DNA of 31,687 nucleotides from an uncultured Ruminococcus sp. (GTDB taxonomy: Bacteria; Bacillota; Clostridia; Oscillospirales; Acutalibacteraceae). Below are positions 1 through 18,860 of the stretch, piece by piece. The position numbers were made by a program, and so were the translations under genes. Under the pieces are notes generated by a model that was not told the origin of the DNA, searched no databases, and saw only the letters and a program-made list of their open reading frames with translations. The DNA lies in contig CACXGH010000241.1 of assembly GCA_902767175.1 (NCBI GenBank), positions 1 through 31,687 of the forward strand, in the 5' to 3' direction. How positions within the stretch are numbered: position 1 is the first letter of the stretch; every line of letters begins with the position of its first letter.

Positions 1-200
1 AGGAGCTAAAGCTCCCCGACGTCTGTTGACGGCGTCGCTCGCTCCAATCAAGCGAGCTTGTTGGAGCTTTGCTCCTTGTTTAATACTTTTTCAGCCGTAC
101 CGCTCGGAAGTGAACTTCGCCGCAATTGTAAGCTTCTGCTTTCAGCCGGTGACAGAAGTCTCTTTGCATACAGAAAATGCGGTTACTCTCTTCGTCAAAG
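1..200 (-). promoter_or_regulatory. T-box riboswitch leader (5' part; antiterminator/terminator and regulated gene lie beyond the left edge), probable Phe (UUC) specifier
   Basis: Minus strand reads GAAG-AGAGUA-ACCGCA...AGAGA...GCUGAAA...UGCGGC-GAA-G-UUC-A-CUUC. This gives stem I with the AGUA/GAA S-turn, the AG bulge, the GNUG distal loop and a specifier loop (UUC at 114-112). Further hairpins follow. The UGGNACC T-box motif is not inside the window. Confidence 0.8.
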
Positions 201-221
201 CGTTTCTGTAATATACAGTGT

Positions 222-251
222 ATTATACCATAAATGCACATATAATTGCAA
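222..251 (-). promoter_or_regulatory. sigma-A-type promoter for the T-box leader
   Basis: TTGCAA (251-246), N18, TATAAT (227-222) with an extended -10 TG, immediately upstream of stem I. Confidence 0.7.
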
Positions 252-326: not shown

Positions 327-485
327 CCGGGGAAAGCCATGTTCCTGAAAAACAAGCTTTATTTCAGTACTGACTCGCAGATGTTCCTTAAAATCCTGTA
401 ATTTGGAAATAGTGCTGCCATTTTATACAATAATGTATGTCAATGATTGACTGTTCTTAATTACATGATTTATAAGTGTTTCAGA

Positions 486-1508
486 TTATTCATCGTCATC
501 TTCAAGTTCTTCTTCATCATCTGAGAACTGCCATGTCTTGAAGCATTCGCTGATATCCTTTGCATTGGCGTTTCTGCTCCATGTTACATTTCGTTTTACA
601 ATTCTTGCGGGATTTCCTGCAGCTATACAATATTCGGGCAGAACACCCTTGAATGTCGAGCCTGCACCTATTATACATGAATCGCCTATTTCGGCTCTGT
701 TCAGAATAAATGAGCCTGCTCCTACCCAAACATGCTTGCCGAGGGTGATAGTTCCTTTGGGGTCATCATCAAGGTAAAAATTGGTACGCTTTCCTGTTTC
801 CATATCAAAGATAGCATGACCGTCACCGCTGAAAAGCAGGATATCATACGAGAACATACAATCATCACCTATGGTTATACTGTTGTTCTCCATTATTGAG
901 ATTTTGGTATTATCTCCGAAGCTTACACCATTGCCGATAGAAAGCACTCCGTTATCATGTACAAATATTCTGCTTGTACCGCCTGTCTTGCATTTCTTGC
1001 CTATATTTACCTTTGCACCTCCGCTTCCGAAAAGGCGGACCCGCATTTCTCCCTTGAAGCTGTCGTCTATTATGACAGTGGAGTTGCATACATATTTGCC
1101 AAGAACGACCTGACAGCCGCCAGAATGAATAAAATTGCCGTATTCGTCTTTATAATCCGGCGCACCGGGAGCTAATACAGTATTGCTTCTGTTTACGAAC
1201 AGGAAGTCCTTGAACTCACGGAAGCCGAGTCCCTTAAAAAGCTTCTTCAAAGCCGCAGCTGCTCTCAGATGAGGAATGATAATATAGTATTCCTTGGCTT
1301 TTCCTTTAATAGAATCAATGAAAATTCTTCCGCTGCCTGCTTTCTTCTCAACAGTAGTCAGAGAAAGCTCAGTTTCAATTCCGAATTCATTTTTTATAAG
1401 CTCTCTGAATTCATCATTTTCGCCATAAAAGACGATTTTTCTGTCATTACGGTATTTTTTTATCAGCTCAGCGGCAACCCTGTAGCTGTTGATTATTGTT
1501 TCATTCAT
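486..1508 (-). CDS. Hexapeptide-repeat (left-handed beta-helix) O-acyltransferase with extra N-terminal domain
   Basis: DCMFSYDI, GDGHAIFD, ITLGKHVWVG...IGDSCIIGAGS, AAGNPARIVK motifs. The start is moved to ATG at 1508 (MNETII) because of the AAAGGA RBS; the ORF-track start at 1580 has none. Confidence 0.85.
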   Translation of the reverse strand: MNETIINSYRVAAELIKKYRNDRKIVFYGENDEFRELIKNEFGIETELSLTTVEKKAGSGRIFIDSIKGKAKEYYIIIPHLRAAAALKKLFKGLGFREFKDFLFVNRSNTVLAPGAPDYKDEYGNFIHSGGCQVVLGKYVCNSTVIIDDSFKGEMRVRLFGSGGAKVNIGKKCKTGGTSRIFVHDNGVLSIGNGVSFGDNTKISIMENNSITIGDDCMFSYDILLFSGDGHAIFDMETGKRTNFYLDDDPKGTITLGKHVWVGAGSFILNRAEIGDSCIIGAGSTFKGVLPEYCIAAGNPARIVKRNVTWSRNANAKDISECFKTWQFSDDEEELEDDDE

Positions 1509-1580
1509 AATAATTGTCCTTTCGGCATAATCAGCAAATGCTGTACTGCAATTATACCATATACTGAACGTTGTTTTCAA

Positions 1581-2597
1581 TCAATTATCATCATTTTCAG
1601 TAAGTGCTATGTATTCCTCAGGTATATGGGTCATATCATTACGGAGAGATTCTGCAGACCATGTAGTGTCCTTTCTTATAATTTTTGCGGGATTTCCTGC
1701 TATGACGCAGTTGTTCGGGAAAGTACCCTTGACTATCGAGCCTGCACCGATAATTACAGAGGGACCTATTACAGACCTGTTGAGAATGACAGACCTCATT
1801 CCCGCCCATACATGGTCGCCTATGGAAATGATATTTTTCGGGTTGTTCCTGTTCTGCATATTGATGCGTTTTCTTTCTGCTACATCGTAGATAGCATGAC
1901 CGTCACCGCAGTATATTTTTATCTCACAAGAGAAAAGACAGTCTTTTCCTATGTTGAGGGTCATTCCTGCAAGCACCGTTACCTCTGTGTTTCTTACAAA
2001 TGTGGTTTTATCGCCTATACTAATACGTCCGTCACCGAATGCAGTAAATGTTACATTATCCTCGAAGGTGCATTTTCTGCCGATTTTTATTTCAGCTCCG
2101 CCGACTGTTTTTACAGTGATCGAAGTATCTTCTCCGAATGTGCAGCTTTCGTCAATATCAATGCTTGCATTGCACACATATTCATCAAGAACGACTCTGC
2201 ATGACGGAGAATTAACACGGTTGCCGTAGCCGTCGGTATAATCCTTTACGCCTTTGTCGAACACAATTTTATCGTGGTTATAGAAAAAGCAGTCCACAAA
2301 GTCTTCATATCCGTAGCTGTAAAGCCTGAGCTGCATATCAAGGGTCTTCTTGTGCTTGGGAACAATAATAAAATAACGGTCGTTCATGTTCTTTATGTCA
2401 AGAATATGTGTGAACTTATCGCCGGCTTTCTTCTTCACCGTAGTGATTATCATCGGATCGTCAATGCCGTATTCGGTTTTGAGAAACTGTCTGTAGGTTT
2501 CTGAGTCTCCCAGAAGAACAATGGTGCGGTCTCCTCTCAGCCTGTCTATTGTTTCAGCCATGCTTCTGTAGTGACTAAGGAATGCTTCTTTGTTCAT
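1581..2597 (-). CDS. Hexapeptide-repeat O-acyltransferase, paralog of 486-1508
   Basis: DCLFSCEI, GDGHAIYD, ISIGDHVWAG...IGPSVIIGAGS, IAGNPAKIIR motifs; ATG at 2597 preceded by AAAGGAG. Confidence 0.85.
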   Translation of the reverse strand: MNKEAFLSHYRSMAETIDRLRGDRTIVLLGDSETYRQFLKTEYGIDDPMIITTVKKKAGDKFTHILDIKNMNDRYFIIVPKHKKTLDMQLRLYSYGYEDFVDCFFYNHDKIVFDKGVKDYTDGYGNRVNSPSCRVVLDEYVCNASIDIDESCTFGEDTSITVKTVGGAEIKIGRKCTFEDNVTFTAFGDGRISIGDKTTFVRNTEVTVLAGMTLNIGKDCLFSCEIKIYCGDGHAIYDVAERKRINMQNRNNPKNIISIGDHVWAGMRSVILNRSVIGPSVIIGAGSIVKGTFPNNCVIAGNPAKIIRKDTTWSAESLRNDMTHIPEEYIALTENDDN

Positions 2598-2613
2598 AAA
2601 AATCTCCTTTTTT

Positions 2614-2650
2614 TTAAGCTGCACAGGGAATAAACCTCTGTGCAGCTTAA
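2614..2650. other. Intercistronic stem-loop (13-bp perfect stem), no U-tract on the sense strand
   Basis: TTAAGCTGCACAG-GGAATAAACCT-CTGTGCAGCTTAA; on the minus (sense) strand it is followed by AAAAAAGGAG, the RBS of the next gene. Confidence 0.75.
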
Positions 2651-2665
2651 TGTGTGTTAATAGAA

Positions 2666-5600
2666 TTATCTCTTGCAGGGGAAGTCAGTCTCGTGTGTAT
2701 CGAAGCATACCGAGTCGACAAGCTTTTTGTCTGCCTTGTTATAAACAACAATGTTCAGACCTCTGCTGTTTACAGAATGATCCTTGCCGTTTATCTGAAT
2801 AATAGCTTCGTTTCCGTTATTGTAGGTGCGGCTTGTTACATAGACATTGCTTGTGCCGAATGAAGCGTCATATACAACGGGTGTATCCTTTGCACCGAGT
2901 TTTTCAAAAATCACCTTGCCGCCATTAATAACTGCCGCATAGCTGTGACCGTGCTGTCCCTGCAGGTCTGTTCTGAGTCCGAGTGTCTTAAGCTCTGCTG
3001 CTGCGGCGGGACTGAGTGCAAGACCGGGAGTATCCTTGACGGCTATTGCGATTATATTTCCCTTGAAGTTCTTCTTGAGCGCTGTAATATAGCTGAATAT
3101 GTCAGTCTTGTCATTGAGTGTCTCTGAGGGAGCCGGAGAAGCCGATACAGTCTCCTGAGCGTCATCAGATGAAGCAGTGAACATACTTTCGGTCATTTCT
3201 GCAAGATTGTCTGTCATGCTCATGATAAGCTCCTTGAGGTTGTTTATCTTCTTATCCTGCTCTGCAGCAAGCTCACGGAGAATGTCATATTCTGACATAT
3301 AAGATGGTTTGGGAGCTGCAAGGGCATTTTTCAGCCAATTCAGACATCTTTCTCTCTCTTTGCCGAGTATCTCATAAACAGCATCGTAATCGACAGGTTT
3401 GTCAAATCTGCCTGATTCAAGATCTGAGATGTCATTTATGAGTCTGTCCTCAAGGTGGAGCATCTTTGCTATGGAATAGAATCTCGATGCTCCTCTCTTT
3501 TCGTTTACAATCGCAGCAAACGGCTTTTTCATCAGAATAGCAAAGCACATACCGTGGAAGGAGTCCGTTACAAAGAAGTCGCAGTTTGCAATGCTCTGCA
3601 GCCTTTCTTCGGTCTTGAGAGGACCTTTATACAGATCTCCGAGAGGCTCGTAATATGAGTCGGGGCGCTGGTACTCCGAGAATACCTCGCAGCCCGTGCC
3701 AAGCTTATCCATGAAATGACGGAGTATTTTTGTCTTATTCTCATCAGGGTCGAGAATATATGAGCTTACATACTTTTCTGGAAGCTTTCTTGTGCAGCGG
3801 TCGATAAGAGTCTGATAGTGTTTCATATCACACAGGAATACAGGGTCAAGTACCCAAACGGCACCGTCAACACCGTAGACATTTTTAGCCGTATCAACAC
3901 CACTGTCCTCTCTTACAGAGAAGTGGTCGAAGCGCTGCAGATAGAAAGCAAGCTCGCTGTGTATCTTAGGACTTCCGAGAGTCCTTCCGAATGAAGCCGA
4001 GTAAGCTATCTTTTTCTTTGTGTCGCTTACCCAATCGAGTGAGGTGTATTTGTCAAGTGCTGTATAGAGATTGAAGTTGAACAGCTTATCAGAGCCGACA
4101 ACGAACATATCGCACTTGTTGTTCAGCACGGCTCTCATTTCGTCTCTGTCCTTGAGAGTCTTTGCAACAGCATATTCAGGGAACAGGGGAGCAAGATGTA
4201 TCTTGTCGTATGATTCGAGAACTCTGTCGATATTCTTTGCTGTCTTGGGACGCTCGATCATAAGAGTAGCGTAGCCGAGGTCTTCAAGGATATGATAGAG
4301 TGCATAATGAGTCATTGCACCGCCAAAGTTTACGGCGTAGAAGTTTACTGCAAGACCCGTGTCAAAGTGCTTTTTATCCAGCATTTCAACGCTCTGTGAA
4401 AGGGTATGGTGCTTTAAAAGCTCCATAAATCTTGTGCGGTTGGGGCTTGCCGGATAGTGCGAACGGACGCGGTTTTTCTTTATCTCGTTCGTCTGTATTT
4501 TCATGAGCTTGCGCTTGGAAAGTCTGCGTTTTATCGAATCATAGAGCTGTCTGCCCTGAGAATTGTTTACGAATATTATAGATGTTCCGAGCTTGTCGGT
4601 CATGCCGGGTTCAAGCTCCTGTATTCCCCAGAAATCGCCTATAGAAAGGTCGCCCTGTCTTGGAAATGCACAGAACATACAGTCTGCACAGGACTTTCTG
4701 AGAGCTGTTTTATCATGGAAGGCTCTTTCAAAGGGGTCATTGTCTTTAAGACTGCCTTCATATACCTTGCCGTTGTCGAATTCTACTCTGATAAAAGTGC
4801 TGCTTCTCCAGCCGTGGCGCTCTTTATCACGGAAGATGACATTGACAGGTCTTGGCGGTTCGTCCTCAGTGCATACAGAGGGAAGACGGGATATTTCATC
4901 AAGATAACCCCTGAGCATTTTCTGTGAAGGAACACCGTGACAGAGAATATCTATTGCATAAAGATTGTCATAGTCTTTATTGAGATATGCCTTGAGACCT
5001 GCAACCTGACAGGGTGTACCTGTGAAGAGAACGGGTTTATCGGTGTCGAGCAGCTTCTTGACGTCACGGTAGAGCATATTTATATTGCTCTGTGCATATT
5101 TTGCCTTTCTCATAGGAGCAAGCTCTTCTTTAGATGATACTATCCTGTGTGCTATCTCAAGCTTATCGGTATCAAAAACAGCACCGCATACATAGCCGCC
5201 CATTTCGATTATTTTCTCTGCAGCTACAGTGAACATACCGCCTGAGGAGCTTTGAGACCTTATTTCATTCTGAGCCATTGCGGAATAAATTTCCGGCTGA
5301 AGTGAATTATCGGCATGAGTATTTACTGCCGGACAGGTATTGATACACTTCTTGCAGCCTATGCACTTATTCATGTCAACACCCGGCATGATAAAACCGT
5401 ATTCGTTTTCCTGCATCGTTATTGCATTGACGGGACATACATTTGCACAGGCAGAACAGCCGGTACATACGTTTTCGGGAACTCCTGCAACGGTTGAGGG
5501 ATAGATTCCCTCCATTTTAGTGCTTCTGATTATTTTGGACTGTTTTTTTGCGGAAGGGTCTGTTTTCTTTTCTGAGGAAATAGCGTTTTTCAGCCAATCA

Positions 5601-6712
5601 TATGAGAGCTTTGCGTTCTTGTCTATGATCTCCCATACCTTTTTATAGTCGATCTCCGTTGAAAGAATTTTTCTTATTCTCTTGTCTATGACCTCGGGCG
5701 TCATATCGTCCTCGTCAAGATTTATCATTCTGTCCTCAAGTCCTACTGTAGCAAGAAGGGTCCTGAAACGGGCGAGGCTCTGTCCTTTGTTTACGATACA
5801 TACAAAGGGTCTGCCGAATATGATAGAGAAACAAAGTCCATGGAAGGAGTCTCCTATATAGCACTGCGTATTCTCAAAATATTTCAGCCAATCCTCAACG
5901 CTCGGATTTTCAACGGCAGGAAGTCCTGTCTTATTGGTGAAGTTCTCGGGATTGTTAGGATTAGGCAGACAGTAATACTTACAGTTGAGTATATCAGCGA
6001 TTTTCAGTATAAAATCTGCCTTTTCCTTGCCGGGACCAAGAAAATAACTCGAAACATATTTTTCGTCAATTTTAACCTGTGAATTAGCTGCTAAGTCGTG
6101 ATAAACCTTTCTGTCGCAGAGGAAAACAGGATCCATGATCTTATCTGCTTTAGAATGGAATACATCATTGCAGATTTTTACTGCTTCGTCTTCACGCACA
6201 CCGATAAAGTCAAACTTTTTCATAAAATGCTCCGACCATATCCTGTCCTCCTCAGGACCGTCATATCCCGAGCCGAATGAGCTTGCCATAGCTATCTTCT
6301 TCTTTTCATCATTGACGAAATCAAGGAAGAAGAACTGACCTGCTTCTCTGCCGCATATCTGATAATGCCATACGACATCAGAGCCGACAATAAAGGTGTC
6401 GCATGTCTTGTTCAGCACCTTGTAATCCATAGAGCTGTGGTAACACTGCGTTACATTGTTGTCGCAGTATTTATAGATGAACTTGTTTGCAATAGTGTCC
6501 TTATCGGCATATCTCGGTCTCCACAGTACCTCAGGCTTATTTACCATGACAGCACTGTAGCCCATGCTCCTGACTACGTCATAAAGAGCATAATAGGTGA
6601 GAACGGATCCGTAATTGAGTCCGAACCAGAGTCCTACGATACCTACATCGTGGTGAGTATCCTCAGCCTTTACGGTCATTTCACGGCTTTCGGTTTTCAA
6701 TGTATCGCTCAT
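2666..6712 (-). CDS. Multidomain fusion: polysaccharide pyruvyltransferase-family domain + 2x[4Fe-4S] ferredoxin + FrhB/FdhB (F420 hydrogenase beta)-like domain + second pyruvyltransferase-family domain + C-terminal ILEI/PANDER-like domain
   Basis: Two copies of N(Y/F)G..(L/M)T.YALY / VGSD / KKKIA..SFG / DSFHG.CF. Ferredoxin motifs CTGCSACANVCP and CIGCKKCINTCP. FrhB-like motifs SSSGGMF, KYAQS, GTPCQVAGL, CHGVPS, RKSCADC, GDLSIGDFWG. C-terminal GHSYAAVI...RGLNIVVY...VDSVCFDTH. Confidence 0.85.
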   Translation of the reverse strand: MSDTLKTESREMTVKAEDTHHDVGIVGLWFGLNYGSVLTYYALYDVVRSMGYSAVMVNKPEVLWRPRYADKDTIANKFIYKYCDNNVTQCYHSSMDYKVLNKTCDTFIVGSDVVWHYQICGREAGQFFFLDFVNDEKKKIAMASSFGSGYDGPEEDRIWSEHFMKKFDFIGVREDEAVKICNDVFHSKADKIMDPVFLCDRKVYHDLAANSQVKIDEKYVSSYFLGPGKEKADFILKIADILNCKYYCLPNPNNPENFTNKTGLPAVENPSVEDWLKYFENTQCYIGDSFHGLCFSIIFGRPFVCIVNKGQSLARFRTLLATVGLEDRMINLDEDDMTPEVIDKRIRKILSTEIDYKKVWEIIDKNAKLSYDWLKNAISSEKKTDPSAKKQSKIIRSTKMEGIYPSTVAGVPENVCTGCSACANVCPVNAITMQENEYGFIMPGVDMNKCIGCKKCINTCPAVNTHADNSLQPEIYSAMAQNEIRSQSSSGGMFTVAAEKIIEMGGYVCGAVFDTDKLEIAHRIVSSKEELAPMRKAKYAQSNINMLYRDVKKLLDTDKPVLFTGTPCQVAGLKAYLNKDYDNLYAIDILCHGVPSQKMLRGYLDEISRLPSVCTEDEPPRPVNVIFRDKERHGWRSSTFIRVEFDNGKVYEGSLKDNDPFERAFHDKTALRKSCADCMFCAFPRQGDLSIGDFWGIQELEPGMTDKLGTSIIFVNNSQGRQLYDSIKRRLSKRKLMKIQTNEIKKNRVRSHYPASPNRTRFMELLKHHTLSQSVEMLDKKHFDTGLAVNFYAVNFGGAMTHYALYHILEDLGYATLMIERPKTAKNIDRVLESYDKIHLAPLFPEYAVAKTLKDRDEMRAVLNNKCDMFVVGSDKLFNFNLYTALDKYTSLDWVSDTKKKIAYSASFGRTLGSPKIHSELAFYLQRFDHFSVREDSGVDTAKNVYGVDGAVWVLDPVFLCDMKHYQTLIDRCTRKLPEKYVSSYILDPDENKTKILRHFMDKLGTGCEVFSEYQRPDSYYEPLGDLYKGPLKTEERLQSIANCDFFVTDSFHGMCFAILMKKPFAAIVNEKRGASRFYSIAKMLHLEDRLINDISDLESGRFDKPVDYDAVYEILGKERERCLNWLKNALAAPKPSYMSEYDILRELAAEQDKKINNLKELIMSMTDNLAEMTESMFTASSDDAQETVSASPAPSETLNDKTDIFSYITALKKNFKGNIIAIAVKDTPGLALSPAAAAELKTLGLRTDLQGQHGHSYAAVINGGKVIFEKLGAKDTPVVYDASFGTSNVYVTSRTYNNGNEAIIQINGKDHSVNSRGLNIVVYNKADKKLVDSVCFDTHETDFPCKR

Positions 6713-6746
6713 TAGTACAACTCCTTCATTATATTATGGCTTGATA

Positions 6747-8564
6747 TCAGATATCAAGATACTTCTTCCAGAAGTCAAGCTCCATAAGCTCTTTTCCTCT
6801 GTTGAGATAAGCCTTAACGGTCTTTTTATACTTCCACCTTGATTTGAGCTGTATCTTCCACAGCATAAACATAAGGCGCATTGTCTCCTTTATGCTCTTT
6901 TCGGTAATAAATGCCTTTCTGCTGCTGTAGTCATAATTGAGTACCTTCTTAACACGGTAGAAGTTAACAGGTCTTGCAGTATATGTGGGTGCTACGATAG
7001 GCATTTCCTTGTCATCATTCTTCTTTGCAGGGAGCATAAGTCCGTTTGCTGTGAGTTTCCTCCATATCCTTGTCCTTTTGGGTGGCTCCGGAGTACGGCA
7101 GGCTTTTTCGTATGACGGATAGCTGAAAGGTATAGGCAGGTCGTTTATGTCCTGCATCTTATATCCTCTGCCCATAACATTCTTGTGGAGTGCTTCACCG
7201 TCCTGAGCCATGAGCCAGTCTATTCCGTTATAGAAGTCATTAACGCCGTTCATGAGAAGCTCGGCATTTTTATATCTGTAGAAAACTATCTCACGCTTGA
7301 CCTGAGATTCAAGATCCTTTACGAATTCTTTTCTCTTATAATTAAGAGCGTGGATAGAGTTGTCTAAAAGTCTGTTTCTGAAAATATAATAATAGAGTGA
7401 TGAAGAATATTTGTTTTCAAACGGTTCGTGCCATACACAGATACCGTTCATAAGAATAATATGCTTGAGGTTTCTCAGCCCGTATTCGACATCATCGCCT
7501 CTTATGAAGATAGGCAGGGGGAGGTTGTCCTCCTGTATTACAGATGCGGGGAACGCACAGTACCACCATGCATTGAATTCTGTCTTTTCCTCGAACTCAT
7601 TATATACACAGCTTTCCGTATCCAAAAGATTAAGACCTGATTTGTGGGAAATGAGATAACCCTTGTTCCATCTTGCGCCTGCTTCAGTCTGAATAAACTG
7701 ATTATCAAGTCTGAGCATAGCTCCGCCGACAAATGCGTCCTTGTACTGTTCCTTCAGGAGTGAAAGTATCACGAAGGTGCGGTATACTGATTCGGGGTTT
7801 ATGATAACATCGTCGTCCATAACGAGAACGTGGGTAATGCCCCTTTCCTCACGGCACTTCATTATTTCTATCATGCCTCTTGTGAATCCGCCTGCGCCGC
7901 CTGTGTTCTTGTTGAGGAACACATGGATCTTATCGTTAAGTACGATCTTTGACTGATCAAGTGTTTTAGCGTTGTCAGAAATAAATATCTCAAGCTTATC
8001 CTTCATTTCGGATTTAGGGTCGTTCAGGAAGTTGTCATAAAGCTCCCTTACATTCTTTTCGACAAAGACCTCACGCTTGAAGGTGCATATATCAAGAGCG
8101 ATCTTTACAGGTCTGATATTTTCCTCTTCAACATCACCCTCATAGTATCCGCCGTAAAACTCTCCTTTTTCGCTCAGACAGCATATCTGGAAACAGAACA
8201 TACCGTTATTTGATTCGGTATCAAAAGGGAAGGAGTATGCTCCGATAATATTAGGCTTGCCGAAGGTCTCTTCAAGAAGGAACTTGGTATTTACTCCGTC
8301 AAGGCTTTTTTCCTTTCTCATAAGAGTAATTCTGAACTTGCCTTTTACACGGACATGGATATTGATTTTCTTAACATTAGTATATTTAAACCATTTTTCG
8401 GCGGAACAGCCGTTGAAATAAGTATCGAACTCAACGAGTGCATCCTCGGTCAATTCGAGATGATCCATATCCCATGTGAATTTGACCGAGCCGTGTCTGC
8501 GGAAATACATCTGTTCTTCGGTGCATATTCCGGTTCTTGGGAAAAGAAGGGTTTGAAGTTTCAT
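6747..8564 (-). CDS. GT2 glycosyltransferase, galactofuranosyltransferase GlfT2-like (N-terminal beta-sandwich + GT-A)
   Basis: NTGGAGGFTRG, LVMDDD, NAWWYCAF, PLPIFIRGDDVEYGLR and GICVWHEPF motifs typical of the GlfT2 family. Confidence 0.8.
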   Translation of the reverse strand: MKLQTLLFPRTGICTEEQMYFRRHGSVKFTWDMDHLELTEDALVEFDTYFNGCSAEKWFKYTNVKKINIHVRVKGKFRITLMRKEKSLDGVNTKFLLEETFGKPNIIGAYSFPFDTESNNGMFCFQICCLSEKGEFYGGYYEGDVEEENIRPVKIALDICTFKREVFVEKNVRELYDNFLNDPKSEMKDKLEIFISDNAKTLDQSKIVLNDKIHVFLNKNTGGAGGFTRGMIEIMKCREERGITHVLVMDDDVIINPESVYRTFVILSLLKEQYKDAFVGGAMLRLDNQFIQTEAGARWNKGYLISHKSGLNLLDTESCVYNEFEEKTEFNAWWYCAFPASVIQEDNLPLPIFIRGDDVEYGLRNLKHIILMNGICVWHEPFENKYSSSLYYYIFRNRLLDNSIHALNYKRKEFVKDLESQVKREIVFYRYKNAELLMNGVNDFYNGIDWLMAQDGEALHKNVMGRGYKMQDINDLPIPFSYPSYEKACRTPEPPKRTRIWRKLTANGLMLPAKKNDDKEMPIVAPTYTARPVNFYRVKKVLNYDYSSRKAFITEKSIKETMRLMFMLWKIQLKSRWKYKKTVKAYLNRGKELMELDFWKKYLDI

Positions 8565-8618
8565 ATTATTTTACACTCCTAAATCATATACTTCTGACTT
8601 TATAACCTCTGACATCTT

Positions 8619-8647
8619 ATTGTAACATTTAAGCATAATTAAATCAA
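8619..8647 (-). promoter_or_regulatory. sigma-A-type promoter of the glycan-modification operon
   Basis: TTGATT-N17-TACAAT with extended TG. Confidence 0.65.
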
Positions 8648-8744
8648 GTTTTTGCACAAAAAACAGAAAGGGCAATTATTAGAAAAATAGCATATTTCAG
8701 GTGTTTTTTTGTGGCTTTGTACTATTTGATGTATTGTAAATATT

Positions 8745-10076
8745 TCACTTTACACAGCATATGGTCTGCTGTCCGTATGCCCTGAGGAGCTTTATTGTGT
8801 ATTTGTCTATCTGCTCTCCCGGCATTATCAGCGGTACTCCGGGCGGACATGGACATGAGCTGTCGGCAGATATTCTTCCATCAGCTTTGTCAAGCTCTAC
8901 AGTCTCCGTTTCTCCGAGCATTGCTTGTCTCGGACTTATTACATATTCAGGCAGTGATATTTTGTCCGGTCTGTCAGAAACGGGCTTGCCGTTCAGTGAT
9001 GAAATAAGTTTTTCAAGTCTCTGAAAATCCTGTTCGCTGTTGAATGGCGTACAAATCATGACTGCGTTTCTCCCGTCACAGAATTCAGGCTCTATTCCGA
9101 AGCCGTGCATAAGCTCCATTTGTTCTTTTTCGGAAACACCTGCACAGAAGGTGTTTATACAAACCCTCAGCGGGTCGCACAGTCCTTCCGGCTGAATTAG
9201 TCCGTGAACCTCTGCAAGAGCTTTTATCTCTGCAATTCTTTTTTCAAGTCTTCTGTATTCATTAATACCGCCGTTTTCAAGATAATCCCTGCACAGATCT
9301 ATAGATGCCATGATAGGATAAGAGGGGCTTGTCGAGCCGAAAAGCGCCATCGCCTGCTTTCCTTCATCTGCAAGCACGGCATTTCCGATGTTCAGTACGG
9401 CTCCGCCCGTCAGTACGGGAAGAGTTTTATGCAGAGAGCAGGCACTCATATCTGCACCGAGTGCGACAGGGTGAAGATTATGCTCCATAAAGGCAAGATG
9501 CGAGCCGTGTGCGTTGTCTACGAGCAGAAGTACACCTTTTTCATGGCATACCTCTGCGATCTTATGTATGTCGGATATTTCACCGTAATAATCGGGGCTT
9601 GTCAGATAGCAGGCTGAAATATCGGGATTTTCCGCTATAGCCCTGCTTATATCGTCGGGGTCGGCTCTGCCTGTAAATGATCCGCTTTCCGAGTGCGGAA
9701 GAACCCATACAGGCTCAATGCCGAGCAGTGCTGCCGCATTGACAGCACTGCGGTGGATATTTCGTGCGAACAGTATTTTTCTGCCCCTTTTCGATGCGAT
9801 TCTCAGCATTGCCTGAATAGCTAAGGTACATCCGCCGGATGAAATAAGCGTTCGCTTTGTTCCGAAAAGCTTTGAAAGGCAATCCTCGGCTTTAAGAATA
9901 GCTCCGTTCGCTTCATAAAGAGCGTCTGTATCAGGCAGTTCCGTCAGGTCAAGACTCATCAGTCCGTCAAGAAAATTACCCGAGCATTTATGCCCGGGTG
10001 TATGGAACGGCGACAGCCCTTTCCGTTTGTGTTCTTTAAGCTGTGTATACAGCGGTGTATAAGACATCTTTGTCAC
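8745..10076 (-). CDS. Orn/Lys/Arg decarboxylase family PLP enzyme
   Basis: FHTPGHK, DLTEL...D.L, RNIHRSA, TSPDYYG, VDNAHGSH, SLHKTLP (PLP lysine), STSPSYPIMASID, PCPPGVPLIMPGE. The start is GTG at 10076 (overlapping the upstream stop) or ATG at 10067 with a GGAG RBS. Confidence 0.9.
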   Translation of the reverse strand: MTKMSYTPLYTQLKEHKRKGLSPFHTPGHKCSGNFLDGLMSLDLTELPDTDALYEANGAILKAEDCLSKLFGTKRTLISSGGCTLAIQAMLRIASKRGRKILFARNIHRSAVNAAALLGIEPVWVLPHSESGSFTGRADPDDISRAIAENPDISACYLTSPDYYGEISDIHKIAEVCHEKGVLLLVDNAHGSHLAFMEHNLHPVALGADMSACSLHKTLPVLTGGAVLNIGNAVLADEGKQAMALFGSTSPSYPIMASIDLCRDYLENGGINEYRRLEKRIAEIKALAEVHGLIQPEGLCDPLRVCINTFCAGVSEKEQMELMHGFGIEPEFCDGRNAVMICTPFNSEQDFQRLEKLISSLNGKPVSDRPDKISLPEYVISPRQAMLGETETVELDKADGRISADSSCPCPPGVPLIMPGEQIDKYTIKLLRAYGQQTICCVK

Positions 10077-11329
10077 TCCGTTTGTTTTGTTGATTGTTCT
10101 TTCATATGCTCTTTGTTTTTATTGCGGACACTCATGAGATGTATCCTTAGCTTTCTCAGATACATGATATAGATGAAGATATTTACTGCGGAAAGAACAG
10201 ATATCGGTACAAAATAGCAATCCGACAGAAAATGAATATAGGTTATAAGCGTTACTGTGTACATCATGCATAAAAGATATATCGTTTTTCTGTCGATAAA
10301 TGCGATCAACAGGGCGAGTATCTCATAAACAAATCCGTAGCGCTCATGCATACTCGGAAGGAAAAGCACACAGGTGTATGAAAGAATGAATGCCATTAAT
10401 ATTATGCTCTTAAGGTCTGTATGGACTTTCTTTTTCAGGCAGAGCAGCATTATTGTTCCGAGAGCTGCTGCAGTGATGATAATTGCAGGATATTTCAGTA
10501 TATTATAAAGCTGTTCGGAGCTTATTACCTCTTTTCCTGCAAAATATGAAGCAGCATGAACGGTGTCGGCTGCTAATCCCCATACGGAGGGATAATTCAG
10601 TGCGACCGATTTATATATTGAGGTCTGAGAAAAATAAATTGTAAATACATCTGTAATACTTCTGCCGGAAATTATTCCCGGAAGGCTCAGAACGACCATC
10701 ACGACAGGAATGAAAAGCAGATAAAGTAAATGAGGTTTTTTCCTTATGAACAGAACAAGCACTATAACGGGCAGAAGGAATACTGCCTGCAGCTTGAAGG
10801 TGAAGGCGACACCGTATACTATCAGAGCCGCCATATCTTTCTTCTTTGACAGAAGAAAGAGGGAAGCAAGCCCGAAGAACGTATAAATTGCATCGCACTG
10901 AGCCCACCATGAGGAGTTAAGTATTACGATAGGGGAGAGAAAGACAAGCCCGAATGCTGTAAAAGCACGGGCATGTCTGTTTTTATCGGAAAGCCGGAAG
11001 ACGATATATCCGCTCATGACGGCTAAAAAAACATCGAATATACATGAAAACAGCTTATAGGCATAAAGTGCTTTTATCGGTATATATGTGAAGAAGGCTA
11101 TTATTGTCTGATAGAGAATATTGTAGTCCCCGACCTGCGTACCGAGATTGGAAAAACCGCCTGCTGATTTAATTTCATCAAACCAAGGAACAAGAAACAT
11201 ATCGGAATCGCCTGATGTCATATCACGCAGTGCAATTCTGATTATTGTGCCTGTTATAAAGAATAATATTCCTGCAATGAGAAGCTTCTTATTGAAAGAT
11301 TGTGCCGCAGTATTTTTTTCTTCCTTCAT
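10073..11329 (-). CDS. Polytopic GT-C-fold membrane glycosyltransferase (GT87/mannosyltransferase-like)
   Basis: About ten hydrophobic segments; GDYNILY, YKLFSCIFD, SWWAQCDAIY, KLQAVF and PSMHERY motifs. Confidence 0.65.
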   Translation of the reverse strand: MKEEKNTAAQSFNKKLLIAGILFFITGTIIRIALRDMTSGDSDMFLVPWFDEIKSAGGFSNLGTQVGDYNILYQTIIAFFTYIPIKALYAYKLFSCIFDVFLAVMSGYIVFRLSDKNRHARAFTAFGLVFLSPIVILNSSWWAQCDAIYTFFGLASLFLLSKKKDMAALIVYGVAFTFKLQAVFLLPVIVLVLFIRKKPHLLYLLFIPVVMVVLSLPGIISGRSITDVFTIYFSQTSIYKSVALNYPSVWGLAADTVHAASYFAGKEVISSEQLYNILKYPAIIITAAALGTIMLLCLKKKVHTDLKSIILMAFILSYTCVLFLPSMHERYGFVYEILALLIAFIDRKTIYLLCMMYTVTLITYIHFLSDCYFVPISVLSAVNIFIYIMYLRKLRIHLMSVRNKNKEHMKEQSTKQTE

Positions 11330-11361
11330 TTTGACCTCCTGATTGTTTTATTTGCTCCGTT

Positions 11362-11390
11362 ATTGTATCATACTATCCCCGTTTTGTCTA
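11362..11390 (-). promoter_or_regulatory. sigma-A-type promoter of the GT-C/decarboxylase pair
   Basis: TAGACA-N17-TACAAT with extended TG. Confidence 0.65.
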
Positions 11391-11463
11391 CCGACATAAC
11401 GTAATATTCACTGAATACTTATTTTCGGTATCTTATATTAGACTCCGACGCACTAAGCGGAGC

Positions 11464-11499
11464 ATTTCTGATTAAAAGTGTCAACTACTAATCAGAAAT
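11464..11499. terminator. Inverted repeat downstream of pdaA, possible terminator
   Basis: ATTTCTGATTA-N14-TAATCAGAAAT just after the stop; the U-tract is weak. Confidence 0.4.
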
Positions 11500-11504
11500 C
11501 AGTA

Positions 11505-12317
11505 TTACTGAGTCTTTGTCAGGTCGCTGATTTCTCCGAAGGTGTAGCCCATATCCTCCCATTTGGTGAGAAGCTCATCAAGTATTTCACTGTTTGTCTT
11601 TGAGGTGCTGTGCAACAGTACTACAGCTCCGTTATGAATTCTCGGGATAAGCTTATCAAACGCTTCCTCCCTTGTCGGCTGTGAATCATTGTTCCAATCG
11701 GCATAAGCAAGACTCCAGAATATAGTATTGTAGCCAAGCTTCTGTGCTGCTTTCAGGTTATCTGTGCTGTAGATTCCCTGAGGCGGTCGGTAGAACTTTT
11801 TAAGCTGCTGTCCTGTTGTTTCGTAATAAAGCTCCTCAAGTGCTTCAAGCTCCTTTTTGAAATCATCAAAGTTTGCTATACCCGACATATCGGGGTGTGT
11901 CATTGTATGGTTTCCTACCGTGTGTCCTTCACTGAGCATTCTTTTGACAAGGTCGGGTGAGGTCTTGATATAGTTTCCCACAAGAAAGAATGTTGCCTTG
12001 ACATTGTGCTTTTTTAGTGTATCGAGTATTTTTTCCGTATAGCCGTTCTCATAGCCTGCGTCAAAGGTCAGATAGATCTTTCTTTCGTTTGTGTCTCCGA
12101 GATAATAAGCGTCATATTTTTTCAGTTCCTCAGACGAAGCACTTCCTGTAGGTATACCGTTGTCCGTGCGGAAACTGAGTCCCCATGATACCGAGCCTGA
12201 AAGCGTCTGTAATGCGTCATGGTTTGAAATACCCGAGCCTATTACGGTGATGAGACATAAAACCATAATGCCTGAGATAATGCCGATAAGAGTTTTTCTT
12301 TTTAAGATCAGATACAA
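11505..12317 (-). CDS. pdaA: Polysaccharide deacetylase, PdaA-type spore cortex muramic-delta-lactam N-deacetylase
   Basis: IYLTFDAGYENGYT, ATFF, VGNHTMTHPDM, YRPPQG, FWSLAYADW and LLHSTS NodB-homology motifs; N-terminal membrane anchor; TTG start. Confidence 0.8.
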   Translation of the reverse strand: MYLILKRKTLIGIISGIMVLCLITVIGSGISNHDALQTLSGSVSWGLSFRTDNGIPTGSASSEELKKYDAYYLGDTNERKIYLTFDAGYENGYTEKILDTLKKHNVKATFFLVGNYIKTSPDLVKRMLSEGHTVGNHTMTHPDMSGIANFDDFKKELEALEELYYETTGQQLKKFYRPPQGIYSTDNLKAAQKLGYNTIFWSLAYADWNNDSQPTREEAFDKLIPRIHNGAVVLLHSTSKTNSEILDELLTKWEDMGYTFGEISDLTKTQ

Positions 12318-12368
12318 AAAACACCGCCCCTTATTTTACCGTTTATGGTAAATAAGTATGCGGTGTTT
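12316..12368 (-). terminator. Long hairpin plus U6 tract after the YbjN-like gene, overlapping the pdaA RBS and start codon
   Basis: Minus strand AAACACCGC-ATA-CTTATTTACC-ATAAAC-GGTAAAATAAG-GG-GCGGTGTTT-TTTG(TAT). Confidence 0.6.
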
Positions 12369-12374
12369 GTTTTT

Positions 12375-12812
12375 TTATGACACGAAGCAGCCCATAAGCC
12401 TCCGGAGCTTTGGTCTGTATTCGTCAACGGTATCAGCGGCTGCCGACAGCATATATTCAAAGATAAAGTCGGTAGGGCCGCTGTTATAAAAGCTTGATGT
12501 CATTCTGAAATAGATAAGCCTGTTTGTGATATCATAGCAGAATGCGCCGTCAGAAACACTGTTGTTTATCATACACAGTGCAAGCGAGATATCTCCGGCG
12601 CCCGAATAGGGTACAAGTCCTCCGAGCGGAGAATAAAGCGTGACAAGCATTTTTGAGGTGTCGATATTGAACATCAGTTTTATATCACCGTCATGCCCGT
12701 TTACAAGACAGGTGACAGTATTTCCGTTTATCTCATATTTTATTTCGTTTCGCTCAAGTACATCGCAAAGCATAGAATATACCCTTCCCGAGCGTGCTGC
12801 TGTAATTGCCAA
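12375..12812 (-). CDS. YbjN-like (type III secretion chaperone-fold) hypothetical protein
   Basis: 145 aa; the pattern ...LALCMINNSVSDGAFCYD...IYFRMTSSF... resembles YbjN-family proteins; TTG start with GGAGGAGG RBS. Confidence 0.5.
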   Translation of the reverse strand: MAITAARSGRVYSMLCDVLERNEIKYEINGNTVTCLVNGHDGDIKLMFNIDTSKMLVTLYSPLGGLVPYSGAGDISLALCMINNSVSDGAFCYDITNRLIYFRMTSSFYNSGPTDFIFEYMLSAAADTVDEYRPKLRRLMGCFVS

Positions 12813-12905
12813 AATAATTCCTCCTCCGTAAATATGATATTCAGTTCATTTTGGTTATATCACAACAGCAGTGCATAATGAAACGAAATTTGTAGCTGCA
12901 GCTAA

Positions 12906-14219
12906 TTATTTTTCCGACAGAATTATCCTTCTCATGTCGGACGCAAGATACAGTGAGCCGAAAACGACAACGGCATTTTTGTCACTGCCATTCATGGCAA
13001 GCGTTCTTGCTTTTCTATATGCTTTTCTAAGGTCGTTTTCGTACCCGACAGGCACTCCGAATTCAGAAACCATTGTTGACAGATCCTCTGCACTCATGGC
13101 TCTGGGATTGTCGGGCGTTACGGTTATTACTTCGTCAAACAGAGGAATAAGCATTGACAGAGCGGTTCTGATATCCTTATCGGCAAGCATTCCCGTTACA
13201 GCGACCTTGTAATACCCGTCAAGGTGTGATTTTATCAGCGAAGAAAGCGCTTTTGCTCCGCCGGGATTATGCGCTCCGTCAAGCAGTACAACAGGGTTGC
13301 TTTTCAGAAGCTCGGCTCTCGCAGGAAAAACTGTCTCTGCAAGACCGTTTATTATGGCATTGTCGGAAATATTCAGGCCTTTTTCTATAAGTGCGGCAAC
13401 AGTATATAGAGCTGCTGCTGCATTTTTGAGCTGATGATCGCCTATCAGCGGTATAGAAAGCTCTTTTTCCTCACCATTAAACAGAATGTCATTTCTGAAA
13501 GTAAACACAGAGCCTTCAAGTCCCGATGAAATGCACTTTACGGAAGAAATATCAGCAACAATAAGCTTATTATTTCTTTCGTCAGCGGCATTTTTGACGA
13601 CTTCATAAACACCGTCCGGCTGTTCACCATAAAGAACGGTAATGCCGTCGGGTTTGATTATACCGCATTTTTCAAAAGCTATTTTCTCACAGGTGTCTCC
13701 TAAAATTGCCGTATGGTCAAGTGATATCGACATTATTACGGAGGAAAGGGGAGTGCTGATGATATTTGTAGCGTCAAAACGGCCGCCGAGTCCTGTCTCA
13801 AGAACAACGACATCGCATTTTTCCCTTTCGTACCATTTAAGAGCGGCGGCAAAAACAAGCTCAAATTCGGTGATGATTTTACCTTCATTTTTCATTTCAA
13901 GAACAACTCTCCATATTTGTTCTATAATATCGGCAAGGTCCTGTTCAGGTATCATTTCACCGTTTATCTGAAATCTCTCACGGAATTCAAGTACAAAGGG
14001 GGAGATAAAAAGCCCTGTTTTATAGCCTGCCGCCCTGAGAATACTTGACAGATAAGCGCAAACCGAGCCTTTTCCGTTAGTTCCTGCAACATGAACAAAC
14101 CGAAGTTTTTTATCGGGTGAGCCTATTCTTTCTACAAGCTCTTGTACTCTTTCAAGCCCGGGCTTGCTCCCGAACACAAGCAGCGAATTTATCTTTTCTA
14201 CAGCTTCATTATATGTCAT
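12906..14219 (-). CDS. folC: Bifunctional folylpolyglutamate synthase/dihydrofolate synthase
   Basis: HVAGTNGKGS, FISP...ERFQING, VLETGLGGRFDATN, ISLDHTAILG, IAFEKCGIIK, LLDGAHNP, FGSLYL. Confidence 0.95.
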   Translation of the reverse strand: MTYNEAVEKINSLLVFGSKPGLERVQELVERIGSPDKKLRFVHVAGTNGKGSVCAYLSSILRAAGYKTGLFISPFVLEFRERFQINGEMIPEQDLADIIEQIWRVVLEMKNEGKIITEFELVFAAALKWYEREKCDVVVLETGLGGRFDATNIISTPLSSVIMSISLDHTAILGDTCEKIAFEKCGIIKPDGITVLYGEQPDGVYEVVKNAADERNNKLIVADISSVKCISSGLEGSVFTFRNDILFNGEEKELSIPLIGDHQLKNAAAALYTVAALIEKGLNISDNAIINGLAETVFPARAELLKSNPVVLLDGAHNPGGAKALSSLIKSHLDGYYKVAVTGMLADKDIRTALSMLIPLFDEVITVTPDNPRAMSAEDLSTMVSEFGVPVGYENDLRKAYRKARTLAMNGSDKNAVVVFGSLYLASDMRRIILSEK

Positions 14220-14298
14220 TCTTGTCTATCCTTTCATCATAATATACATTATAACAGGCATGGTAAACTGTAATTGAATACCATGCCTGAGATTGTAA

Positions 14299-14928
14299 TT
14301 AATTCTGTTCTTTGCGCTGCTTCTGAGCTTTGATTACCTTAAGTCGGGAGAATTCTTCTCTTTCCTTCTCTTCAAGAGCGTCAGAGATAAACTTCACCGT
14401 CTCCTCGAACTTGGGAATCATAATGTTCTTTAATGCATTGGCACGCTTCTGCGTTTTCTTTATCGCATCTGCAAGTCTGTATACACTGTTCTCGATCTCC
14501 GCTAAGTGGGCTGTTAGCCTCTTAACCTCACTAAAGCATACATAAGCTTCGTCAAATGCGGAGTTTGTAACTCCGAGACCGTAAAACAGATTGTTCTCAT
14601 GCTCGCTTTCGTCTATCGTTACAATAGGTATTTCAACGCCCATGACGCTTCTGTAGCTTAACTGCAGAGTATCGTCCTCGGGAACTGATTTCGCTATCGC
14701 ATCAATATAACCCATGGTGATATTTGCCCTCTGCAGTGCAAGATATGCCTTGCTGTAGGTGATATCTATTTTTGTTTGTATCTCTGCTGCTTTATCAATA
14801 AGCGTCATCATCTCTCTTACGAGAATATTGCGCTTTTTGTCAAGCAGCTCGTAGCCTGTCCGGGCAAGCGAAAGAGACTTTTTTGATGTCATAAGATTGC
14901 CCTTTGTAGGTACAGCCTGTACTGCCAT
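14299..14928 (-). CDS. ntpD: V/A-type ATPase subunit D
   Basis: PTKGNL, LARTGYELLDKKR, VMGVEIP, KTQKRANAL, DALEEKEREEFSRLK. Confidence 0.95.
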   Translation of the reverse strand: MAVQAVPTKGNLMTSKKSLSLARTGYELLDKKRNILVREMMTLIDKAAEIQTKIDITYSKAYLALQRANITMGYIDAIAKSVPEDDTLQLSYRSVMGVEIPIVTIDESEHENNLFYGLGVTNSAFDEAYVCFSEVKRLTAHLAEIENSVYRLADAIKKTQKRANALKNIMIPKFEETVKFISDALEEKEREEFSRLKVIKAQKQRKEQN

Positions 14929-14948
14929 TTATTATCACCCCATTGTCA

Positions 14949-16397: not shown

Positions 16398-16479
16398 TTA
16401 ATTCACATCCTTGTATTCCGAAAGGGTGACTGCTCACCCTTGCAGTCGGTTATTGTCAGACTGCGGAGTCTTTAAAGGC

Positions 16480-18237: not shown

Positions 18238-18260
18238 TTAATAAACCATCCCATCTTTTT

Positions 18261-18860
18261 TTATTCGGTGACGGAAAGGCCGGAGTGCTCATAGAACCAT
18301 TCCTTCTGATACATCAGCTTGGTGTCAAGCGTCTCGTCAGCAATAAGTCCCATGCTGCGGCTCAATCCCGTGATACCGCCTATTTTGATATCATCAGAGA
18401 TCATGATCTCGCATTTTCCCGAGAATGCAGCCTTGAGCTTCTTCTCGTATTTCATATCGCTCTCTCTGACATAAAGTATAACATCGTCCGCTTTAAGAGC
18501 CTTGCCGATTTCCTTTGCGCTTTTCTCAAGGAGAGAAGAGTATTTTTCCGTTTTTGTAAATTCAAGCAGCTTTTTCTCTGCCTTGACAAATACTTCGTCC
18601 TCTATCTCACGGCGTTTTGCAAATATCCTGTTCCTGCTTTCGCCTTCTGCCTTTGAAAGCTCGCTGGATATCTTATTGTTGATATCAGCCATTTTCTTCT
18701 GTATAAGGTCGTATGCTTCTTTCAGACCTTCTTCTTCGGCATTATTCAGCTCGCGCTCTCTGAATTCCTCTGCCTCGGACTGCAGGCGTCCGCGCTGCTC
18801 CTCGGCATATTTTTCAATAGCCTTCAAAAAGTTATCTGTTTTGCTAACCGTATCGGGCAT
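18261..18860 (-). CDS. ntpE: V/A-type ATPase subunit E
   Basis: N-terminal coiled coil, C-terminal IGGI...ADETLD motif, operon position. Confidence 0.85.
   Translation of the reverse strand: MPDTVSKTDNFLKAIEKYAEEQRGRLQSEAEEFRERELNNAEEEGLKEAYDLIQKKMADINNKISSELSKAEGESRNRIFAKRREIEDEVFVKAEKKLLEFTKTEKYSSLLEKSAKEIGKALKADDVILYVRESDMKYEKKLKAAFSGKCEIMISDDIKIGGITGLSRSMGLIADETLDTKLMYQKEWFYEHSGLSVTE

Follow-up and report, generated by a model that had tools for sequence, protein, structure and literature searches.

Two described systems serve as points of comparison for the gene cluster considered here, which lies in a 31,687-bp contig (CACXGH010000241.1, or C241; 'the window' means this entire contig) of a rumen Acutalibacteraceae bacterium (Clostridia). 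The first is the mycobacterial galactan pathway, with Glf, GlfT1, GlfT2, and a Wzm/Wzt-type exporter, where a GlfT2-type enzyme takes the UDP-galactofuranose supplied by Glf and polymerises it processively, beta-1,5 linkages alternating with beta-1,6. Its GlfT2 enzyme from Mycobacterium tuberculosis, which Wheatley and colleagues are said to have described in 2012, reportedly has a GT-A core, a metal-binding DDD motif, a DD(x)E catalytic pair, and a histidine. The second is the Klebsiella O1 wbbY-wbbZ pair, in which a glycan-extending enzyme and a pyruvyltransferase act in trans with a main glf/wzm/wzt locus. In Klebsiella pneumoniae O1, WbbZ adds a terminal pyruvate to the O1 backbone in an ATP-binding cassette (ABC) transporter-dependent system, and wbbY and wbbZ are co-distributed (PMC10629545). 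The rumen cluster comprises genes for a GlfT2-like galactofuranosyltransferase (P0001), a multidomain tailoring fusion (P0002), and two left-handed beta-helix (LbH) acetyltransferases, and by our reading the Klebsiella pair would be its nearest described analogue.

The cluster resembles the mycobacterial pathway in several respects. P0001 aligns with GlfT2 over about 420 residues, with the motifs kept; glf is present in the genome and near the module; an ABC-2 exporter is found in the locus of relatives; and the enzymes are predicted to be soluble and cytoplasmic. The differences are also clear. The identity between P0001 and GlfT2 is low (about 420 of 605 residues aligned, E 6e-25), and each genome carries three GlfT2 paralogues of distinct clades. 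A match to GlfT1 falls below cut-off here, and DUF4422 proteins accompany glf. The rumen system has additional tailoring functions of the pyruvyltransferase (PvT), FrhB, and LbH types, and its host is a Firmicute without arabinogalactan. In comparison with wbbY-wbbZ, where WbbZ is a stand-alone ketal enzyme with an NxGD motif and no reductase, the PvT domain here is duplicated, is fused to an iron-sulphur (Fe-S) flavoprotein and an ILEI-like tail, and lacks the NxGD aspartate.

A first-pass annotation of this DNA had described four co-oriented genes forming a self-contained operon. The genes and their domain families agree with the open reading frames (ORFs) and with Pfam and NCBIfam matches. 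Their self-containment does not survive comparison of gene neighbourhoods, which was based on 14 related loci with sequence upstream of the fusion: the window, L030-L038, L041, L123, L124, and L125 (L031 and L035 may be one species). The close relatives are rumen metagenome-assembled genomes (MAGs) labelled as Acutalibacteraceae, uncultured Ruminococcus, or Clostridiales. In all 14 loci, a GlfT2-like gene of the same clade as P0001 ('clade B') shares an operon with an ILEI-tailed fusion, and in 13 of them it lies directly upstream. The exception is L124, in which the clade-B gene is found in the same operon, two genes further upstream. The pairing holds down to 36–42% identity (L041) and extends to a commoner class of fusions of about 910 aa that are devoid of the N-terminal PvT domain. 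Similarly, at least 19 of the 120 best homologue clusters of each protein share a longest contig of equal size, and the three that were inspected all proved to be single loci.

The acetyltransferase genes behave differently from this pair. Two LbH genes follow the fusion in the window and in L125, one follows it in L031, L039, and L041, and at least one in L040, where the contig ends. None is present in L030, L032, L034, L036, or L037, where pheS or the glf cluster comes next. The genes that occupy this position also belong to different clades across loci. Because the LbH genes vary in number (zero to two) and in clade, only the first two genes of the cluster are co-conserved. The space between the fusion and pheST appears to behave as a variable tailoring slot, and comparison of the loci suggests that the functional unit is a two-gene core with optional acetyltransferases, set within a larger pathway for galactofuranose (Galf) and ABC export.

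Nor can the arrangement be regarded as rare: relatives of the GlfT2-like protein, and likewise of the fusion, number in the hundreds to thousands in gut and rumen Clostridia. Among 200 other sampled species of the same GTDB family, FrhB/PvT homologues occur in 49 and GlfT2-like proteins in eight. In three of these eight (G133, G183, and G083), a GlfT2-like gene adjoins an FrhB-PvT fusion; other GlfT2 paralogues are involved here. A PvT domain is fused to, or adjoins, an FrhB-like reductase in approximately a quarter of the sampled family genomes. The full five-domain fusion was not found among the 200 species, and is present in about 20 metagenome clusters and eight rumen MAG species. None of the distant FrhB-PvT loci L042-L045 has a GlfT2-like neighbour, so the link seems to be a property of the ILEI-tailed subfamily and not of all FrhB-PvT pairs. 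What is new is the fixed pairing of the fusion with a GlfT2 paralogue. The searchable full-text literature yielded no functional assignment for FrhB-PvT fusions, no GlfT2-like enzyme in Clostridia, and no account of the present system.

Gene 1 was annotated as GlfT2-like at first pass, and its sequence features indicate a true member of the GlfT2 family. The model of the N-terminal beta-sandwich domain, Glft2_N (PF17994), matches residues 3–87 at 31.8 bits against a cut-off of 26.1 (E 1.5e-7; 34.9 bits on this piece alone), and there is a weak GT2 profile match. When P0001 was compared with PDB sequences by phmmer, residues 36–454 aligned with the galactofuranosyltransferase 9DTP (2e-27) and M. 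tuberculosis GlfT2 (4FIX, 6e-25). Its MDDDV, WW, GDDVEYGLR, and VWH motifs lie opposite the same motifs of both structures, and the residues DDD 250–252, WW 333–334, DD 357–358, and H379 are invariant in 25 relatives. The C-terminal helical domain 3 (PF19320) has no match in P0001 itself, whose alignment with 4FIX extends to residue 454 of 605; the domain is recorded for homologues that are 48–53% identical. The genome encodes three GlfT2-like paralogues, on contigs C241, C26, and C200. These fall into three clades of the paralogue tree: the C200 type, found by glf; clade B, found by the fusion; and the C26 type.

The fusion P0002 consists of a first PvT domain (residues 33–309), a 2x[4Fe-4S] ferredoxin (406–463), FrhB_FdhB N and C parts (476–730), a second PvT domain (795–1070), a short helical linker, and the ILEI-like tail (approximately 1207–1341). 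Both PvT domains match PS_pyruv_trans (PF04230; E 9e-34 and 4e-33) and are 32% identical to each other, and the FrhB_FdhB N and C models (PF04422 and PF04432) score above their cut-offs. Two CxxCxxCxxxC motifs, which supply the eight ferredoxin cysteines, and the FrhB residues C568, C591, C675, and C678 are invariant in 21 orthologues. The nearest solved relative of the FrhB part is the FrhB-like part of Fsr (7NP8, E 3.5e-12). Since the F420 biosynthesis gene cofH was not found in the 87.6%-complete genome (best score 52 bits, cut-off 374), flavin and ferredoxin are the probable partners of the FrhB-like part. A Pfam scan of P0002 gave no EPSP-synthase-like or MurB match. The model of the second PvT domain (pLDDT 93.5) has a two-Rossmann, GT-B-like fold. 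Its top structural matches are Pvg1p (5AX7; E 9e-6, TM 0.52–0.55) and UDP-sugar 2-epimerases, which is the same pattern of matches as reported for WbbZ (PMC10629545).

Two further modules of this kind are found in the same small genome. On C26 (L017 398-7231, reverse strand), a 916-aa protein fuses a PvT domain to the N-domain of a thiamine-diphosphate enzyme, and the module continues with a zinc alcohol dehydrogenase, a 369-aa pyruvyltransferase, and the third GlfT2-like protein (640 aa). Its gene content suggests a different substituent derived from phosphoenolpyruvate (PEP), for example one that is decarboxylated and reduced. On C228 (L018 5275-11194, reverse strand), the gene for a 1037-aa GT2-GT1 double glycosyltransferase precedes that for an 890-aa PvT-2x[4Fe-4S]-FrhB fusion, making this the third pyruvyltransferase-reductase module of the genome.

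Genes 3 and 4 encode paralogues that are 39% identical and belong to different clades. Each has an N-terminal alpha/beta domain of about 140 aa that has no Pfam match and resembles C2185-like_N and CatB-related proteins by predicted structure only, followed by a left-handed beta-helix like those of WbbJ and WcaF. Hexapep scores at or above its cut-off, while the WbbJ, WcaF, and Maa models match at E values of 1e-13 to 1e-20, below their equivalog cut-offs. The residues D232-G233-H234 and W264 of gene 3 are invariant in 33 relatives. The structural model of gene 3 (pLDDT 90.7) has the polysialic-acid O-acetyltransferases OatWY and NeuO as its best PDB matches (E about 5e-8; by target, TM reaches 0.70). 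Both of these enzymes act in the cytoplasm on the finished polymer of ABC-dependent capsules, and NeuO is encoded by a variable accessory gene. The LbH pair resembles polymer O-acetyltransferases. It differs from OatWY and NeuO in its low identity (22–25%), the extra N-terminal domain, and a presumed Galf-glycan substrate.

The partners of the module lie outside the window. In agreement with the first-pass annotation, Pfam scans of all other large ORFs in the 31.7 kb detected no flippase, ABC exporter, priming transferase, or UDP-galactopyranose mutase gene (glf). The annotation had proposed that the module works in trans with a locus elsewhere and had advised locating glf and wzm-wzt. The host MAG (1.92 Mb in 247 contigs) carries glf on C200, between genes for a DUF4422 protein and a GlfT2-like protein, and Wzm/Wzt on C29. 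The 'elsewhere' is, however, closer than that proposal implied. A 72.9-kb contig of the same species carries a decarboxylase-like gene dependent on pyridoxal phosphate (PLP), then GlfT2-like, fusion, LbH, LbH, and T-box-pheS-pheT-ireB, with a second GlfT2-like gene and glf on the opposite strand. The partner cluster begins about 5 kb past gene 4, beyond pheST, and glf is about 7–8 kb away. In relatives, the two parts are contiguous. DUF4422-glf-GlfT2-like clusters occur within 10 kb of the pair in L031, L036, L037, L039, and L041, and in L041 Wzm/Wzt lies between the pair and glf. In L124 (an ENA metagenome contig of 118.7 kb), positions 415-18573 carry on one strand Wzm, Wzt, glf, GT2, GlfT2-like, PvT, GlfT2-like, a 909-aa fusion, PvT, and a 1430-aa fusion. 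Of the versions of the system that were seen, this one is the fullest, and its 1430-aa protein has PvT, Fe-S, FrhB, Hexapep, and Epimerase matches. In G133, the order is glf, GlfT2-like, fusion, PvT, DUF4422, and GT2, followed after a gap by Bac_transf and EpsG.

The best matches in the host genome to these locus-embedded Wzt, Wzm, Bac_transf, and EpsG proteins are all encoded on C29 (45, 32, 45, and 38% identity, respectively). C29 (L120) carries on one strand genes for Wzm (259 aa), Wzt (338 aa), a GT4-family transferase, a Big_2 protein, and an IspD-like cytidylyltransferase, and divergently genes for a Bac_transf priming enzyme (482 aa) and EpsG. The C29 genes are likely to be the priming and export partners of the Galf pathway. 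Together, the embedded genes of relatives and their best matches on C29 support an ABC-transporter-dependent pathway, the parts of which would be dispersed in the species of the window.

The evidence leans, if modestly, towards the cluster being the tailoring arm of such a pathway for a Galf-containing cell-wall (or capsule) polysaccharide. The core of the first-pass interpretation, in which a Galf glycan is extended and then decorated with pyruvate-derived and acyl groups in concert with genes elsewhere, is thereby retained; it is borne out by the GlfT2 membership of gene 1, the presence of glf in the genome, the comparison of loci, and the likeness of the LbH enzymes. In the four proteins, no 19-residue window exceeds a Kyte-Doolittle value of 1.6, whereas 64 windows do so in the GT87-like membrane protein of the same contig. 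Given the absence of hydrophobic segments, all four are taken to be soluble cytoplasmic enzymes that would act before ABC export, on a lipid-linked glycan. P0001, distinct from the glf-adjacent paralogue, would add or extend Galf from the UDP-Galf made by Glf. The fusion would attach PEP-derived, three-carbon carboxylate groups via its two PvT domains. Its ferredoxin and FrhB-like flavoprotein part would most likely reduce an enolpyruvyl intermediate to a lactyl (1-carboxyethyl) ether, an analogue of MurA/MurB built from unrelated folds. The ILEI-like tail, a fold that serves as a glycan-binding module in POMGnT1, would probably hold the glycan. The two LbH enzymes may then O-acetylate the polymer from acetyl-CoA, as a variable, lineage-specific extra. 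Outside the window, the DUF4422-glf-GlfT2-like cluster on C200 would provide further Galf transferases, and Bac_transf, EpsG, and Wzm/Wzt on C29 would provide priming and export. The observations behind this scheme are the gene and domain identities, the motif conservation, the solubility of the proteins, the pairing, and the contexts of the loci; we infer the donor and acceptor sugars, the polymer-level action, the lactyl product, and the exporter that is served.

An unlikely alternative places the fusion at the stage of donor synthesis. It would modify a nucleotide sugar, much as MurA/MurB modify UDP-GlcNAc, to give for example a lactyl- or pyruvyl-hexose linked to UDP, and the clade-B GlfT2 would be the dedicated transferase for this donor. 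Such a division of labour would explain why a separate GlfT2 paralogue always accompanies the fusion. It would also be in keeping with a review of Escherichia coli O-antigens that credits wfeP with making UDP-D-GlcpLA, and with the resemblance of the N-terminal alpha/beta domain of the LbH proteins to domains of nucleotide-sugar acyltransferases. However, CsaB, WbbZ, and Pvg1p, which are characterised PF04230 enzymes, have lipid-linked or finished glycans as their substrates, the structures nearest to the LbH model belong to polymer-specific enzymes, and the fusion bears a tail whose fold, by analogy with POMGnT1, could bind glycans.

The product of the fusion could also be simpler than a lactyl ether. 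Both PvT domains might make pyruvate ketals, with the Fe-S/FrhB part engaged in redox sensing or an unrelated reduction. Proven ketal enzymes share an NxGD motif, an Rxxx(S/T) motif, and a histidine (PMC10629545). CsaB requires R148 and H308, and its R306 is predicted to lie at the PEP site (PMC10435577). In its two strong PF04230 matches, its GT-B-like fold, and its PEP-site arginine and histidine, P0002 resembles the ketal enzymes CsaB, WcaK, WbbZ, WcfO, and Pvg1p: R173 and R934 (VRE), and H291 and H1053 (SFHG), equivalents of the PEP-binding residues needed in CsaB, are kept in both domains and conserved in 20–21 of 21 orthologues. A 5,6-pyruvylated Galf also exists in nature, in Klebsiella K12. 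The fusion departs from these enzymes, however, in its fused reductase and in two motifs. NxGD is replaced by LNYGS (33–36) and VNFGG (795–798), invariant in the 21 orthologues by a correspondence that is motif-level and not structure-based, so that serine or glycine stands in place of the aspartate; this residue is D106 of Pvg1p, and the D106A mutant is nearly inactive. Likewise, the RxH arginine (CsaB R306, Pvg1p R337) is serine in both domains (S289 and S1051) of all 21 orthologues, giving SFH, whereas E. coli WcaK has a canonical NRGD at the matching N-terminal position and TRLH. The recurrent fusion or adjacency of PvT and FrhB-like proteins across the family further points to coupled chemistry. 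Taken together, plain ketal formation appears improbable, and the missing NxGD aspartate and RxH arginine would fit a lactyl-ether product, short of proof.

It is about equally doubtful that the fusion acts as a terminator that, like WbbZ in Klebsiella O1, caps the non-reducing end of a galactofuranan with a pyruvate-derived group to set chain length or a terminal epitope, in place of a substituent on each repeat, since, despite the precedent of wbbY-wbbZ (a polymerase and a pyruvyltransferase yielding a terminally pyruvylated, ABC-dependent glycoform) and the short helical linker ahead of the fusion tail, the linked Wzt proteins of L041 (256 aa), L124 (245 aa), and C29 (338 aa) are short, those of L041 and C29 show the ABC ATPase domain only, with no cap-reading carbohydrate-binding extension, that of L124 has only ATPase families on record, and two PvT domains together with extra PvT genes in related loci suggest multiple substitutions.

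If the cluster is the tailoring arm of a Galf pathway, a more specific proposal can be made, although it is more likely to be wrong than right. The GlfT2 paralogue and the ILEI-tailed PvT-FrhB fusion may constitute a two-enzyme machine for a lactyl-ether (1-carboxyethyl) galactofuranan, an anionic class of wall polymer undescribed in Clostridia. The chemistry would be of the MurA/MurB type, performed on a polymer, and swappable acetyltransferases would give strain-level surface variation. MurA and MurB transfer an enolpyruvyl group from PEP to the hydroxyl of a sugar and then reduce it, with flavin, to a lactyl ether, as proposed here for P0002; their folds are unrelated to it, and the likeness is one of analogy only. 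Possible precedents come from enterobacteria. For E. coli O164 in comparison with O124, loss of glucolactilic acid has been attributed in a review to a wfeP frameshift. Among the 79 K types of Klebsiella, K66 alone has an F420-hydrogenase-like gene in its cps locus, and this gene is listed next to the K66-specific pyruvyltransferase wcqF (PMC4616057 supplement). These loci differ from the one described here in being of the Wzx/Wzy type, in Gram-negative hosts, and in having no GlfT2-like partner.

Several considerations weigh against the assignment of the cluster to a Galf-tailoring, lactyl-forming role. The identity of the modified sugar is presumptive, as is action on a polymer as opposed to a nucleotide sugar. 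The donor of clade B might be something other than UDP-Galf. The departures from the ketal motifs come from alignment at the level of motifs; hhalign places the DSFH of P0002 opposite the TRLH of WcaK at low probability, and neither phmmer nor a 28-sequence profile reached the solved pyruvyltransferases from the PvT domains by sequence. As precedents for a lactyl ether, wfeP and K66 presuppose that WfeP belongs to the PvT family and that the K66 capsule carries such an ether. The role given to C29 depends on best-match reasoning in a fragmented, 87.6%-complete MAG. Finally, co-transcription is presumed: in the one public run containing this DNA, which is of unknown type and has 21% of the sampled words, the contigs were only 150–465 nt long with a depth of 1–4, and none spanned a gene junction.

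The four genes are separated by 34, 68, and 72 bp, and the promoter proposed at first pass ahead of them (Table 1) has fared well. It matches nine of 12 consensus positions in an AT-rich region, where the scan gave 36 sites and 25 ± 6 would be expected. In eight of nine aligned upstream regions from other species, the -35 box, the spacing, and the extended -10 box are kept. Because boxes and spacing are conserved amid diverging flanks, the site is taken to be a real promoter. A second candidate, inside the end of gene 1 and ahead of the fusion gene (6757-6728, 11/12), was rejected, as its -10 box is not conserved across relatives. Conservation in the 34-bp gap before the fusion gene is limited to the ribosome-binding site, which fits co-transcription of genes 1 and 2. 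The strong promoter-like site in the gap directly before gene 4 means that this gene may also be transcribed on its own. The start of gene 3 is placed behind a GGAG ribosome-binding site, and that of gene 4 agrees with a 340-aa call on the longer contig of the same species. The hairpin between genes 2 and 3 was rejected as a terminator, since no T-run follows it on either strand; it could be an element of mRNA processing or stability.

Table 1. Positions of the module genes and associated signals in C241
Feature	Position	Strand	Description and basis
Promoter of the module, sigma-70-type	8619..8647	-	-35 TTGATT, 17-nt spacer, TG-extended -10 TACAAT; consensus scan and conservation
Gene 1, GlfT2-like galactofuranosyltransferase P0001	6747..8564	-	605 aa; PF17994 match and alignments with PDB GlfT2
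Gene 2, tailoring fusion P0002	2666..6712	-	1348 aa; Pfam on full protein and pieces
Hairpin	2614..2650		15-bp stem; between genes 2 and 3, directly before the gene 3 ribosome-binding site; no T-run
Gene 3, LbH O-acetyltransferase 1	1581..2597	-	338 aa from ATG 2597 (most likely start); ORF 1581-2624
Promoter-like site, strong	1551..1580	-	TTGAAA, 18 nt, TATAAT, with TG; 11/12; in the 72-bp gap before gene 4
Gene 4, LbH O-acetyltransferase 2	486..1508	-	340 aa from ATG 1508; ORF 486-1580

Pfam scans assign the other large ORFs of the window to a V-type ATPase operon and an envelope operon, to aromatic amino-acid genes, and to genes of the FolC-like, deacetylase, GT87-like, and PLP-decarboxylase-like families. 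The genes for the GT87-like polytopic membrane glycosyltransferase (10073-11329) and for the PLP-dependent Orn/Lys/Arg-decarboxylase-like protein (8745-10076) share 4 bp. The latter gene is found just upstream of the module in seven related loci, with no evident functional link. Both were rejected as parts of the module: they are frequent neighbours, but their strand and distance vary. Downstream of the module, window positions 1-251 (reverse strand) hold about the first 207 nt of a T-box leader ahead of pheS-pheT, cut by the contig end, with a TG-extended promoter-like site at 251-222. On the longer contig of the same species (L002 16462-16897), this leader scores 92.5 bits against a gathering score of 93 (E 8e-21). 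The spacer between gene 4 and the promoter of the pheS leader contains perfect tandem repeats at 256-326 (a 19-nt unit x2.1 and a 25-nt unit x2.0).

For all the abundance of Clostridia in rumen and gut, very little is known of their wall polysaccharides. The comparison of loci recasts what looked like a four-gene operon as a conserved two-gene core with accessory genes in a dispersed, ABC-transporter-dependent pathway, and the distribution of homologues indicates that this system is common in uncultured rumen and gut Clostridia. Locus types of this kind join a mycobacteria-like family of galactofuranan polymerases with a very common, uncharacterised PvT-reductase fusion. Galf consequently becomes a concrete acceptor candidate for testing the fusion as the missing lactyl-ether synthase. 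The changing content of the acetyltransferase slot resembles diversification in the manner of serotypes. Mammals have no Galf, and such polymers are therefore candidate epitopes for immune recognition and for lectins, as well as candidate phage receptors.

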